A stretch of 64,000 nt of DNA, from the NCBI GenBank assembly GCA_964187785.1, contig OZ076409.1:53198001-53262000 (forward strand). Reading direction: 5' to 3'. Made by a program: the position numbers and the translations under genes. Every line of letters starts with the position of its first letter. Within the stretch, counting starts at the first letter, position 1. Below the pieces are notes generated by a model, which saw nothing but the letters and a program-made list of their open reading frames with translations, made no database searches and had not been told where the DNA came from. The stretch is from Amphiscolops sp. MND2022. Its lineage: Eukaryota. This document shows positions 1,438 through 5,283 of the stretch, one piece after another.

Positions 1438-4400
1438 TTACTTGATATGATGATATACGAGAGGATCAGTATCTTTCTTCGACTTCTTCTTCGGAGTCGT
1501 CTTACTGCCACCAGCTTGAACATTAGATTTTTTCGTTTTCCCGACTTGCTTCACATCAGTGCTCTTTCCACCAACTTTACTTCCACCACTTTTCCCTTTT
1601 CCACTAGTAGAACTGGAACTACTCTGCACAACGGAACTGCTACGAGACCCCTGCTCTGCACGAGACAAACGATTGACCCGATTACACTCAGTATAATGCT
1701 CATCACTGGACTGCCGTCGCTTTGCCAAAAATTCCTTATACAGCTCGCAAAAAGCTGCAATAAATGAGTCCACGCCAGAATCACACAGATCTTTCCACAC
1801 ATAAAAATCAGAGCCAATATAGAAGAGCCCAGCATCGGAAACAGCATATCGAATTAAGCCCATCGTCGATTCAGTAAACAATGACTGCGGAGAATAACCG
1901 TCACTCAAAACATAGGATTGGACAACCCTACAGCACAAAAGCACACTCCCTTCAGCCTGCTTACAGCCAGCCAGATCAAGAGTAAATGGAGGACTAACAC
2001 GATTGGGCTCACCAACAAGCAAGCAACATAACTTGAAGACACGCAATACATGTCGTCGTGATTGAAACCCAAAATCATCCAGCAAATAACGACGAACGTC
2101 CGAAATAGAACCGGCAGAACGCTCCAATCGACTATGCTGCCTGCGTATCTCAATCACGTACGCGCTGTATTCATCCAGGGAGGTATTGCATTCCTCTCGG
2201 GATAAAGCGCCGCACCTCATCAGATCATCACACAGCTCAGAGAACAAATCAAACGCACATTTATCGTCACCCTCTAACCTCAGTTCAGGGCAGAAACTGC
2301 ACAGACCCTTCGACACAACGGAACGGGTGCCAGCGCTCTCTACTAACAAGAAGGCGAGACGATCGATAAATTCTCTGCAGCGACCACGAAACTTTGGCAT
2401 TTCACTTGACTTTGAGGATAGAAGAGACTTCCCATACTCACAGTGAGCCAAGAATTCCTCCACAGGTGCAACAGGGAAACTTGAAACCTTTTCCACGTTC
2501 ATGTACGCATCCCAATCGTGAATATCTGGGAGACTTGACAACTGGCGTGTCTTCATCAACAAGCAGTATATGAAATTGCACAATTCGCCATAGCCATGAA
2601 ACGCATAATCGCTGCGGCTCTGTCTCAATTTTGGCAAATGAATATGGAAAATATACAGCATCAATTGCAACAGTCCAAAACGATATGGCATCAGTCCGTC
2701 CGAGATCAGAGTTGAATCCATCCCTCTCAACTAAACAACAACACACAATAATCAAGCAGACGGGAAATAATAGACGATTAACAAAACGACCCCGAAGAAC
2801 CCTCAACAAAAAAAAAACCATACAACAAACTTACACTATCGGCTTGATCCTTCACATGAGGTAACCCAGTACACCGAATGAACAGACGAATCGAATGCCA
2901 CAGATCCACCAAATCAGTCAGAACCTCACGAAGATCCTGGAAGGCAACGAAACCTTGACGAATGGCCTTACGCAGCAACTTCTTGCCGTCTGTCCAGTCC
3001 TCATAGACAACGCTCTTCAGTCTTAAAATGACATAGTCCACCAAACTTGTCACCTCCACCATTCCAAAAACATCTTGATGTGCCTGGCGCACACACTGCA
3101 GGAACACCTCTCCGGAAAACTGTTGATGCACAATAAATCGCTTCCCATCAGTACGATTGTCCTCTATCACTCGAAGCAGCACCGGACTAGCACCGCTGAT
3201 ACAAAGAGGAAGACGCGCATTTTGCACACCGTGGACGAACTGCGCCAAAGGAACCAACTCAGATTTGGGCATAGGCTGATCCAAAACTTCCTGACCAATT
3301 CAGATTTTCCGTAGAGCATTGTCCAACCAGCACACAACAAAGCACCGTTCCACATCCGCGTCCTTCTCATAAAACAATGTGTATTCATTGCGTGTCCCGA
3401 CCGCACTGAGAACCAGACGCAACACCCGAGGAGCAAGACCACGACACAGCAAGGACTGAAACAATACGCAACTACCATGACTACAAAATCGTACTATTAC
3501 AGATCCCCCCCCAACAAAAATGAGACAAAGAGAGAAAACAAAAAGCTCATAAATCCAAAGGCCACACAAAATATGTAATATTCCTACTTACCACCGTCTC
3601 AGCACGACTCCAATTCAGCTGATATTCGGGCGCTCTCTCACCCAAAGAAGCACGAAAACACGCCCATAAACGTCGTAACAACGTGAATTCGCCGCCACTC
3701 CGGAGCCACTCACAGACAGATGAGATCATCGTCATAAATGGGACCTTCGAATCAACTTGAGCATGCTTAGGCACCAAAACTTCCGGAAAGGGAACCCCTC
3801 TGCTAAGTCCACAAAAGGCTGAGCTTTATACTCCGCAATCTGGTCGGGTGTTAGTTCCATAGGCTCTAACCATCTATTGTATACGGGCAACCCCGAATGC
3901 ACCCTGTAGCGCACATCACGAAACCAGTGCCCATCAGATGAGAAGTGACGTTTAAACTCGCCAGATCCTTGAGCTTTCATCCGCACATCTCGGTGGCACA
4001 CACGACAGAAGAAAAACGTAGGCTCCCCGCACTTAGGGCCACTGACAAAGTCGGAATATGCAGGATGCAAGGACAACATGCGTCTTTTTAAATGCTTGCG
4101 ATTCCCAAAAGTCCGCACTCGACGCTGACAACGATCTCAAATCTTCTTAGACAATTTCGTAAAACCTGCAAACAATAACAACACCATCAATAAATATGAC
4201 ACACAAAACTACGACTCCAAGGCCCCAACCAAACCTAAAGAACCCCCCATTCACTATGAGATACCAACGTACCTGTCACGATACTTTGTACTGCCCGAGT
4301 CTCTACCTCCGAAATCAAATGACGACCAAACTGCGCCAAATCAATGGGACTCAACGGAGTATTGCCGGGGAAAGCTAACACCTCCTCCTCCTCCTCCGCT

Positions 4401-5283
4401 TCTTTGTCACCTATAACAAGCACCAAATAATTAGGAGGAAACAAAACGGACGCCCGAGCTAACCAGAGAAAACACAAGCAGAAGACTCAATCGAACAACT
4501 ACATACAAGCATTCTTCACAACAAAGAGAAGAGAAAGGAAAAGATTGAACAAAAAAAAGAAAAAATAGAAACAACTAACTGCTCCATCCTTCAACCATGA
4601 GATCCTGTAAGGTAGGTGAATGATCACCTTGACGTCGCTGTGGAGGTGTCGAAAAATTAACCGCCTGCTCTCGGGAACAACCCGGCTCCATGACGCCCAC
4701 AGCCGCAACTTCAGCACCATCTTTTTCCCTCACGTTTTCTTTCGGGGAGGCCGGATCGGCCTCGCCTCCACGAGGCTCATTGGCAACGGTAGCATCTTGA
4801 AGCTGAAAACCAACTCCTGTGGCATCTCGTGAAACACCAGCACTGACGTCGGGAGCCTCTAACAAAGAAGAGGAACCAGGCTGGAAAGAAGCAGCATGCC
4901 CGGAACCAGTAAGAACAGTTGTCAAGATAGCACTAACAGAAGCAACCGGAAATGCCTCGGTAAGGGAAGGAAGGCCCGCGGGAACCAATGAACGACTAGC
5001 ATCTGTATTGGTATTAAACCCGGGCAGCGCAATGGGTTGAGTTACTGAAAATCAAGATCTGGTTCAGACGCGTCAGAGTTACGGGTAAGACTATAAGAGG
5101 CTGATCACCAAAAACAATAGTCCTATTACCCAGGAAGTCAGAAAGATTTTACCAACCCGAAGCAGAACGAGAAATTTCTACATCAGTAGGGACGATGTCA
5201 TCATCAGTAAAATTGAAGGTTGTCTCGTTCCCACTGATGAACCCTGTGCCAGTACCAGCAGGCGGAGCAGAACTATCATCCAT
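1438..5283 (-). pseudogene. Antisense 6-exon gene, ~1070 aa, hAT-transposase-derived protein with BED-like Zn finger. Exons 5283-5157, 5044-4580, 4410-4273, 4165-3592, 3455-2835, 2730-1438. This copy has TGA at 4137-4139, a 1-nt deletion ~3785 and TGA at 3300-3302
   Basis: GT-AG introns 5045-5156, 4411-4579, 4166-4272, 3456-3591 and 2731-2834 (donors GTTGGT, GTTAGT, GTACGT, GTAAGT, GTAAGT; T-rich YAG acceptors) join the ORF fragments in matching phase (1,1,1,0,0). Motif FCRVC-x16-H-x5-H. Confidence 0.8.

Follow-up and report, generated by a model that had tools for sequence, protein, structure and literature searches.

How an element that moves by reverse transcription could carry a gene with several spliceosomal introns, and where that gene came from, are the questions raised by a locus in the 64,000-nt stretch of DNA analyzed here (the window). 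The original prediction had described an antisense, intron-bearing gene inside an LTR retrotransposon and had taken it for genuine cargo. We found this gene, oriented antisense, in the interval separating pol from the 3' LTR of a Ty3/gypsy element, with a defined exon-intron structure, present in most copies of the element, under purifying selection, and homologous to a DNA transposase. The reading that we favor, at a probability of roughly 0.6, is that of a captured antisense gene, a structural and evolutionary claim joined to a broadly nuclear regulatory role.

The carrier element

The carrier is a 17.4-kb Ty3/gypsy element with LTRs of 2.3 kb. Pfam searches of locus L031 and the window recovered the order gag-protease-RT-RNase H-integrase, with gag, protease, RT, RNase H, and the integrase zinc finger all found upstream in L031. 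The 3' end of pol (integrase core and C-terminal tail; 1..1291, plus strand; rve, E = 0.008; Integrase_p58_C, E = 8e-5) is, by a frame check, broken over two frames in the window copy (3-1085 and 791-1291) and forms a single frame in young copies. The 3' LTR (6649..8967, plus strand) has TG...CA ends, is 97.1% identical to the 5' LTR (L031:1528-3865), and is preceded by a purine-rich tract that is a putative PPT (6636..6648, plus strand); a TGG immediately downstream of the 5' LTR is a candidate primer-binding site. A 5-bp target duplication, GTCGA, flanks the element, and five further copies also show matching 5-bp duplications. LTR identity reaches 99.5-99.9% in some family copies. An Rfam search of positions 1-9200 gave no match.

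Exon-intron structure of the cargo gene

The minus-strand gene comprises 6 exons with 3,218 coding nt (~1,072 codons) and five introns of 112, 169, 107, 136, and 104 nt, every one GT...AG. The original prediction (five GT-AG introns of 104-169 nt joining exons in exact phase into ~1070 codons) agreed with these coordinates, and its junctions EGWS/SDKE, RAETV/SLLC, and DQADS/LRGM were all located. The cargo stop at 1438 lies, as it had stated, 146 nt from the stop of the pol C-terminal frame at 1291.

On the minus strand, exon 1 (5157..5283) starts with the ATG at 5283 and has a conserved acidic motif; intron 1 (5045..5156, GTTGGT...TCAG) separates it from exon 2 (4580..5044), which is of low complexity and fast-evolving (dN/dS of 0.30-0.50). 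Intron 2 (4411..4579, GTTAGT...ATAG, phase 1), like intron 1, was supported by copy comparison, and intron 3 (4166..4272, GTACGT...GCAG, phase 1) by comparison of both copies and families; between them lies exon 3 (4273..4410, dN/dS of 0.06-0.09). Exon 4 (3592..4165), the most constrained (dN/dS of 0.04-0.07), encodes a C-x2-C...H-x4-H zinc finger at about 4007-3925 and then a helical part, and matched the transposase family A3 described below (hhalign, E = 1.1e-4). Introns 4 (3456..3591, GTAAGT...TCAG) and 5 (2731..2834, GTAAGT...TTAG), both in phase 0 and both supported by copies and families, enclose exon 5 (2835..3455), assigned from profile alignment to an RNase H-like core without catalytic residues. 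The intron 4 join falls inside a gap-free, high-confidence block of the alignment to the transposase profile, and a homologue, P0120, reads through the intron 5 junction in one frame. Exon 6 (1438..2730) encodes the homologue of the helical insertion domain and C-terminal part seen in hAT-like transposases, followed by a coiled coil and a K-rich tail (24% K/R); for this exon hhalign of A2 against A3 gave 97.6% (E = 2.6e-12), and the predicted model had a pLDDT of 84.

Across 19 copies, 186 of 190 splice dinucleotides were canonical, and introns differed freely in length (130 to 168 nt for intron 4), whereas exon-length changes were mostly multiples of three. Seven of the 19 close copies were open end to end with every splice site canonical. 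The window copy itself has the three predicted lesions, namely, in-frame stops at 4139-4137 and 3302-3300 and a one-base frameshift near 3790. The conserved acceptor of intron 1 is TTTTCAG at 5045; an AG at 5004 was rejected as the acceptor, being retained in just 4 of 19 copies.

Splice positions were common to families with only ~50% protein identity. At 33 of 37 distant loci, other families have a sixth phase-1 GT-AG intron (125-148 nt) at the position corresponding to 2648..2649 (minus strand); it is precisely missing from the clade of the window element, which is nested in the tree. A further intron within exon 2 appears in several other families, a less certain call from our own heuristic. 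The cargo core was open in 19 of 37 distant loci, a count that we deemed more reliable than that of an automatic splice-site picker, which yielded full-length frames in just 6 of 40 distant loci, partly because the extra exon 2 intron was disallowed.

Spread in the genome and selection

Genome-wide, 618 matches to the pol-end motif and 679 to the intron 1 motif point to a family of several hundred copies. The two motifs were paired in 46 of 66 cases on C1 and in 43 of 53 known carriers, and at all 45 distant homologous loci the cargo was antisense and behind integrase. The cargo frame had a dN/dS of 0.11-0.15 (8 pairs across subfamilies), against 1.1-2.7 for four other frames; synonymous sites are saturated between families, yet the frame and splice sites persist. 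Purifying selection is thus strong, the GT and AG ends of the introns recur in other copies and other families, and the segment is present in most copies, all of which upholds the view of a genuine antisense cargo gene.

Cargo families are 35-60% identical to one another and their integrases 70-94%; in one pair of loci (L105 and L107) integrase dS was 0.033 and cargo dS was saturated. The cargo and integrase trees conflict, with cargo types swapped among near-identical integrases, and the two divergences were scarcely correlated (rho = 0.13, P = 0.16). Nor did cargo divergence follow that of the LTR over its first 330 nt (rho = 0.17, P = 0.14, n = 10), which speaks against family-specific recognition of variable LTR sequence.

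Long residence in the element, another claim of the original prediction, gained support from fourfold-degenerate sites, which on the plus strand have nearly the same composition in cargo (A 0.40, C 0.28, G 0.17, T 0.15) and integrase (A 0.39, C 0.28, G 0.18, T 0.16). Free transposases differ from the cargo in that A is about equal to T at such sites, and the base composition of the cargo is thus fitted to the element. The introns are indeed A-rich on the plus strand (A 0.50), but as a sign of residence this stands less well, as U-rich introns could explain it.

Transposase homology of the cargo protein

By sequence comparison, the cargo protein is a derivative of a hAT-like DDE transposase. 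It matched the transposase family over 533 columns (hhalign, 98%, E = 2.3e-13), the transposase profile matched 35 of 36 cargo rows at E < 1e-3 and none of the 36 reversed rows, the homology is colinear from zinc finger through insertion domain to C terminus, and P0120 links the two groups. The zinc ligands C, C, and H aligned at confidence 9 and are kept in 32, 32, and 30 of 36 rows, 3-4 of the 36 being gaps. The first catalytic D is replaced, at good alignment confidence, by an E that is invariant in all 31 rows having a residue there. The second D position holds S/R/L/V/N and the catalytic E position Y/C/Q/P/S (at low confidence), CxxH aligns to F-x-x-E, and RW is unaligned, the last two motifs being invariant in A3; since alignment confidence at D2, CxxH, RW, and E is only 0-2 of 9, their loss rests partly on the motifs being absent. 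The alignments nonetheless indicate that the catalytic residues were lost and the zinc finger was retained. Terminal inverted repeats (TIRs) with an 8-bp target duplication were not found around the gene, the best flanking inverted pair (17 nt, 82%, 1386-1402/5810-5826) lacking an adjoining duplication.

Family A3 comprises 85 proteins found by starting from a transposase remnant in this genome, with named members from insects, ticks, fishes, a snail, a sponge, and a flatworm, and the motifs D, D, CxxH, RW, and E are invariant in it. Its D, D, CxxH, and RW are in register with those of nine Dimer_Tnp_hAT-positive ORFs (E = 2.8e-4, probability of 41%), and one member is named a Dimer_Tnp_hAT domain protein by UniRef; a Pfam scan for that domain matched 0 of 25 members scanned. 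We therefore term A3 hAT-like, without a subgroup name, a search for such a name having yielded none. Twelve Ac-type hAT ORFs of this genome had no match to the cargo (hmmsearch, E > 0.2), and nine of these twelve gave 0.1% in hhalign; a match emerged only for the other subgroup.

In a fold comparison with 48,161 chains, Hermes (8edg_A) ranked third (Z of 5.8, 188 residues aligned, rmsd of 6.3; model residues 2-282 on chain residues 341-609), and none of the other matches in the list of 50 was as long. This fold match is middling, in a score range that the tool describes as common for helical proteins. Foldseek against PDB and viral libraries and a VIA second look gave no significant match to the cargo model, and a single-sequence prediction (pLDDT of 37) was unusable. 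Pfam searches of the cargo exons and 116 homologues returned nothing at the cutoff, TRP28 (PF04195) included; a word-indexed search among longer proteins with exon 6 and its alignment found no match, and a protein atlas search no usable one. The sole PDB sequence match of the cargo, to Zur (46 residues, E = 0.007), was taken as chance, and a PDB sequence search with A3 did not retrieve Hermes.

Intron 1, the upstream region, and a second accessory ORF

Among 18 representatives, pairwise identity was 91% in intron 1, compared with 63% in exon 1 and 49% at the start of exon 2. Retention of this intron leads to an in-frame stop two codons in. A central stem-loop is predicted around an invariant TGATCA; the intron folded no better than shuffled sequences (z between -0.8 and +0.3), and changes on both sides were seen in only 1-2 pairs, so that the hairpin and its strand are unproven. 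A pyrimidine tract and an AG, both conserved, lie 22 nt upstream of the ATG (5306..5325, minus strand; 15 of 18 match a strict pattern) and probably form the acceptor of a 5'-UTR intron.

Farther upstream, 5560..5800 is a putative internal bidirectional promoter. It contains TGACGTCA at 5574-5581 (exact in 16 of 18 representatives), which we take to be a CRE, and CCAAT at 5645-5649 and 5718-5722 (18 of 18), likewise read by us as promoter motifs. Downstream of the cargo stop, the minus strand showed no AATAAA-type signal within the window, and one AATATA occurs at 1108. Head-to-head with the cargo across the CCAAT/CRE region lies a second accessory ORF in sense orientation (5901..6743, plus strand), which encodes 280 aa and reaches into the 3' LTR. 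It has a homologue in 19 of 20 loci, a dN/dS of 0.10-0.20 where estimable, and its start motif in 31 of 47 loci. A Pfam search gave no match; its N-terminal VIDISSDEE is presumably a SUMO-interaction-like motif and its PKKKRK presumably NLS-like. The transposase origin, the intron differences between families, and this divergent ORF go beyond the original prediction.

Proposed history and function, and rival explanations

Under the favored reading, an ancestor of the lineage would have gained a hAT-like transposase gene, in antisense orientation after pol and before the 3' LTR, and retained it as an accessory gene. The evidence argues strongly that the cargo would be transcribed from the internal minus-strand promoter and then spliced, that its introns would survive because the packaged, reverse-transcribed full-length plus-strand RNA holds them in an unspliceable orientation, and that selection on the protein would work via replication of the element. 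The product may be a nuclear, non-cutting, zinc-finger DNA- or chromatin-binding scaffold that acts in trans and, jointly with the divergent sense ORF, sustains transcription of the element or protects it against silencing by the host; conserved intron 1 may be a control point through regulated splicing or as a binding site. We give this combination of scaffold, partner, and control point about even odds. Action in trans is proposed because cargo types swap among nearly identical integrases, and a nuclear role is suggested by the K-rich tail and, by analogy, by the antisense product of Grande, which is nuclear according to the portion of the review consulted (PMC7264820). A bolder version, advanced tentatively and at clearly less than even odds, is that the lineage domesticated a DNA transposase as a chromatin regulator: a two-gene cassette with a bidirectional promoter, in many exchangeable types, whose dead hAT-like scaffold and SUMO-binding nuclear protein would disarm silencing in trans, with splicing of the ultraconserved intron 1 gating output, antisense introns lost precisely within a reverse-transcribed genome, and relatives in other assemblies suggesting that the arrangement predates the species. 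Germline splicing of the P element is an analogy for such gating.

The dead transposase could instead assist integration by binding new cDNA ends or internal DNA or by anchoring the integrase complex at selected chromatin, in the role of a targeting or nuclear-import factor. Binding of DNA ends and target DNA by a transposase scaffold is established for Hermes (PMC5225508, in the part available), constraint is strongest in the zinc finger and the insertion domain, and nuclear import of the preintegration complex has been proposed for antisense ORFs (same portion of PMC7264820); cargo and integrase nevertheless fail to covary in dS, in their conflicting trees, or in overall divergence, which makes such a cofactor unlikely. 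The exchange of cargo as a module independent of integrase and LTR, and the lower identity among cargo families than among integrases, would also suit a protein whose targets are not DNA but silencing or restriction proteins of the host, or hAT transposases, and which serves as a decoy or dominant-negative, its many divergent types being maintained as if by an arms race. We consider this mimicry quite unlikely, as positive selection was not seen, core exons have a dN/dS of <0.2, and the near-invariant zinc finger is expected for nucleic acid binding.

A cargo that is still an enzyme, a nuclease or recombinase with a rebuilt active site, would account for the invariant E at D1 and for the retention of the whole scaffold. 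We hold this very improbable: the D2 and E positions have no conserved acidic residue, CxxH and RW are not retained, TIRs with a target duplication were not found around the gene, and D2, E, CxxH, and RW are each required in Hermes and Muta1 (PMC5225508, same part). Negligible credence is left for a nested hAT insertion carried as a passive passenger, or for ORF fragments read by chance, as the purifying selection, the open core in about half of the distant loci, and the frame and splice sites that outlast synonymous saturation all outweigh the transposase ancestry and the broken window copy that would suit it.

Significance and comparison with known systems

For the captured antisense gene that we favor, antisense accessory ORFs were already known; new, within the literature searched, is one that has several introns and can be traced to a DNA transposase. 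Searches outside subscription journals and Repbase turned up no paper in which the antisense cargo of an LTR element is spliced or comes from a transposase. The origin follows a transposon route deemed unsupported in the part of the review seen (PMC7264820). A reverse-transcribed element can evidently carry a multi-intron gene stably, a naturally occurring equivalent of the antisense retrotransposition cassettes built by engineering, and the family offers a closed system in which to watch intron loss. The family numbers several hundred copies, in some of which the LTRs are 99.5-99.9% identical, and this makes the case testable. Annotation pipelines would overlook such a gene, for which Pfam, PDB, and the protein atlas gave nothing usable.

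Antisense accessory ORFs (aORF-3R) have been described for maize Grande (gene23), rice RIRE2, Silene Retand (TRP28, PF04195), PvRetro13, and fungal Boty (brtn) in the accessible text of two papers (PMC7264820, PMC11963269). There, as here, the ORF lies antisense between pol and the 3' LTR in most copies and is conserved like core genes, and gene23 of Grande is driven by an upstream promoter of its own and yields a nuclear product (PMC7264820). That review, as far as seen, calls the origin and function of these ORFs unknown, considers insertion of other transposable elements an unsupported route, and urges a search for spliced antisense transcripts. The cargo differs in having five to about seven spliceosomal introns (the word "intron" is absent from the main text consulted of PMC7264820 and PMC11963269), a length of ~1,070 aa, no TRP28 or other Pfam domain, an origin traced to a DNA transposase, and a host that is probably an animal. 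Like the nuclear regulators HBZ and APH-2 of HTLVs, it is antisense in the 3' part of an LTR retroelement (PMC11963269, in part), but those proteins are small, bZIP-type, and driven from the 3' LTR, and the cargo is multi-intron and transposase-derived with a putative internal promoter. The bdelloid DEDDy/GDSL ORF3s, planarian Burro/GYPSM1, and orchid AlkB-bearing gypsy elements also carry fixed noncore cargo, none of it antisense, intron-bearing, or transposase-derived in the portions available (PMC5408684, PMC6431247, PMC12786077).

With A3 transposases and Hermes the cargo is colinear and shares the zinc ligands; unlike A3, it lacks the catalytic and accessory residues, has a ~240-aa low-complexity N-terminal extension, showed no TIR or target site duplication, and is mobilized as part of another element through reverse transcription. 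Single long ORFs are what the recovered A3 members have, in a search that favors intron-less genes. HBZ, for its part, has a spliced form, and VANC of VANDAL transposons, a transposon-encoded anti-silencing protein, serves as our working analogy. ZBED-type genes are domesticated hAT transposases that lost catalysis and kept DNA binding; the domesticating "host" here, unlike theirs, is a retrotransposon, so that a mobile element of one class appears to have domesticated an enzyme belonging to a different class.

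An antisense spliced gene carried by a Ty3/gypsy element

The cargo, the antisense gene between pol and the 3' LTR, comprises six minus-strand exons (5283-5157, 5044-4580, 4410-4273, 4165-3592, 3455-2835, and 2730-1438) that total 3,218 nt when joined, separated by five GT-AG introns of 112, 169, 107, 136, and 104 nt; its stop lies 146 nt from that of pol (1291). Every sequence statement of the original prediction was borne out: the antisense ORF fragments, the five introns, the spacing to pol, and the three lesions (one frameshift and two in-frame stops). The 5' UTR may hold an intron as well, given a conserved acceptor 22 nt ahead of the ATG.

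The carrier spans ~17.4 kb in a 1.07-Gb genome (window start, G000:C1:53198001) and has the Ty3/gypsy domain order of gag, protease, RT, RNase H, and integrase. Its 2.3-kb LTRs (5' LTR, L031:1528-3865, in the fetched upstream part of the element; 3' LTR, 6649-8967) are 97.1% identical, end in TG...CA, and are flanked by a 5-bp target duplication. This copy sits within a gag-bearing piece of another retrotransposon (8973-11000, minus strand; DUF1759 and zinc knuckle). Its pol is frameshifted close to the 3' end, has ~600 bp of upstream pol duplicated within the RNase H region (L031:8129-8733), and ends in a tail with three 42-nt repeats (904-1038). A block directly past the integrase core (700-840) is conserved between families at the nucleotide level (16-mers in 44-45 of 49 loci) and is a possible cis element. 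A tandem element pair (L045/L046; G000:C9 near 27.44-27.46 Mb) is 99.5% identical over 7.3 kb. Elsewhere in the window, the stretches 28604-31397, 37500-43800, and 62600-62780 hold long inverted repeats together with ~410-nt repeat units of one family, which are probably non-autonomous DNA transposons, and a minus-strand open frame of 435 codons (53699-55006) had no Pfam match.

Selection on the cargo among close copies

Of the 5,693 candidates from a DNA search, 21 received a score; we aligned the window with 18 loci (L002-L019), leaving out the partial loci L020-L030. The original prediction had staked the gene on GT/AG conservation in other copies, and 186 of 190 splice dinucleotides were canonical across the 19. 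Nine of these copies kept a stop-free cargo frame, seven of them with every splice site canonical. Between subfamilies, cargo dN/dS was purifying at 0.11-0.15 (8 pairs; dS, 0.12-0.43), compared with 1.1-2.7 in four other frames and 0.18-0.23 in the opposite-strand frame with which third positions are shared. Constraint was strongest in exons 3-5 (0.04-0.09) and weakest in exon 2 (0.30-0.50). Four pairs of very similar copies gave 0.25-0.78, as expected of drift after insertion. A simple LTR pair was present in eight copies; all four with LTRs 96-99% identical were broken, and the four at 99.5-99.9% identity were split between two open and two frameshifted. Introns of the close copies diverged at about half the synonymous exon rate (0.14-0.21 versus 0.33-0.43), which may reflect composition or constraint.

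Prevalence in distant families

Exon 6, used as a protein query, reached families down to ~35% identity. Integrase lay just downstream on the opposite strand in all 45 distant loci fetched (20/20, 20/20, and 5/5), showing that the cargo is tied to the element. Because these loci had been picked through the cargo, the converse needed separate motif counts. Genome wide, a pol-end 19-mer had 618 exact matches and an intron-1 acceptor 21-mer 679, and the reversed controls of both had none. Pairing of the two motifs with the spacing and orientation expected was seen for 46 of the 66 pol motifs of contig C1, compared with 43 of 53 in the fetched carriers; the majority of element copies therefore carry the segment, which is not the one-off insertion that the original prediction had weighed. 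The cargo core (exon 4 to stop) was open in 19 of the 37 distant loci, out of 40, in which all four core exons scored.

Introns across families

Introns 1, 4, and 5 keep codon and phase between families ~50% identical in protein, and the interiors of introns 4 and 5 (70-213 nt) are unrelated. A further intron within exon 6 of the window (intron 6; phase 1, GT-AG, 125-148 nt) occurs in 33 of the 37 distant loci; it is exactly absent from the other 4 and from all 19 close copies. The seven tree rows without it form one clade (100/99) nested among families that have it, so this 3'-most intron was lost once and precisely, which would fit recombination with spliced cDNA. Judged by this comparison, the cargo introns are real and their splicing is strongly predicted. 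By our own heuristic, several families seem to have yet another intron inside exon 2.

Intron 1 (5045-5156) is 91% identical between families versus 63% for exon 1, and exceeds its flanking exons in all families. A weakly supported hairpin has a stem surrounding an invariant TGATCA; an Rfam search of the intron had no match. Also in the intron are another palindrome (GACGCGTC), a tandem pair of GT donors offset by four bases, and a donor-like CGG|GTAAGA near 5086 of the plus strand. It may be a splicing control, a DNA site, or a packaging or dimerization signal.

Descent from a hAT-like transposase

Pfam, PDB, and protein atlas searches with the cargo protein gave no usable match, and an exhaustive protein search with exon 6 returned 492 unnamed relatives, ten of which were checked and came from ENA assemblies. 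Ahead of any test, we took the cargo to resemble hAT-like transposases. In a model predicted from 116 sequences (pLDDT 84), the hAT reference Hermes ranked third among 48,161 chains and gave the longest alignment among the matches listed (Z 5.8, 188 residues, rmsd 6.3), a likeness weak by itself. Ac-type hAT ORFs, tried as cargo kin, did not match. Four remnants of another subgroup, the source-type hAT-like transposase (L131-L134), were found in the same genome via a motif search.

One hAT-like remnant retrieved 85 full-length proteins (family A3) in which D, D, CxxH, RW, and E are invariant; the family lines up in register with Pfam-positive hAT ORFs (E 2.8e-4, probability 41%). Its named members point to an animal as the probable host. 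The cargo aligned colinearly with A3 over 533 columns (98%, E 2.3e-13), and at E<1e-3 the A3 profile matched 35 of 36 cargo rows and none of the 36 when reversed. Exon 6 alone scored 97.6%, and exons 4 and 5 were weaker but correctly placed (E 1e-4 and 2e-3). P0120, a homologue from another assembly, scored 96.6% and runs in a single frame through junctions 5 and 6. It and three further homologues (P0088, P0082, and P0146) had no high-identity counterpart encoded in the source genome (best, 29-36% for P0120 and P0088); the P0088 cluster has 24 members, on contigs that differ in length.

The zinc ligands of hAT-like transposases are kept in the cargo. At the catalytic columns, E replaces D1, and none of D2, CxxH, RW, and E is retained, alignment confidence being low for these four. 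PMC5225508 describes the D/D/E, CxxH, and RW residues as required in Hermes and Muta1, and the protein is unlikely to be an active enzyme. The gene has no convincing terminal repeats on its flanks. On these alignments, the cargo is a hAT-like transposase by descent, not an active one.

Residence, exchange, and proposed role

At fourfold-degenerate sites, the plus-strand reading of the cargo shows the bias of pol, unlike that of free transposases. The ~600-nt spacer upstream of the cargo has CCAAT in 18 of 18 representatives and TGACGTCA in 16 of 18. Beyond it lies a conserved and constrained second accessory ORF in sense (5901-6743), whose conserved N-terminal VIDISSDEE resembles a SUMO-interaction motif, and whose PKKKRK resembles a nuclear signal. 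VIDISSDEE, as search handle, located this ORF in 31 of 47 loci, 9 of which had the basic motif. Its C-terminal CC-x-G-I-P-x-F-x-R-G lies inside the LTR, and frameshifts shorten the ORF in several young copies.

The trees of cargo and integrase share their deepest split but conflict within the main group. Cargo distance correlates with neither integrase (rho 0.13) nor LTR start (0.17), whereas these two correlate with each other at 0.65 (n = 10). Very different cargo types sit on near-identical integrases, and vice versa (L087, L105, L106, L107, L094, and the window), a pattern of modular exchange by recombination around the cargo.

The selection and conservation results exclude a neutral passenger, and the claim of a genuine gene maintained antisense is supported. 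Selection could act on its protein only through help to element replication. The zinc finger, the dead transposase scaffold, the basic tail, and the free exchange of cargo among elements would best fit a nuclear protein with a trans role, either regulatory or protective against silencing, at some target that every family shares. An integration cofactor is a less likely role for the protein, and a protein decoy somewhat less likely still. In antisense orientation, the introns would escape splicing of the genomic transcript; removal of sense introns during retrotransposition is stated for Ty1 in PMC12786077.

Comparison with known antisense ORFs

In the open-access literature searched, we found no precedent for a spliced, transposase-derived antisense cargo. 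The gene shares the positional class of the antisense ORFs of Grande, RIRE2, Retand, PvRetro13, and Boty, whose origin is termed unknown, and a TE-insertion route unsupported, in PMC7264820 and PMC11963269. Unlike Retand/Grande-type antisense products, it is not a TRP28 protein. It is a known kind of antisense ORF by position, with an unexpected origin in a transposase.
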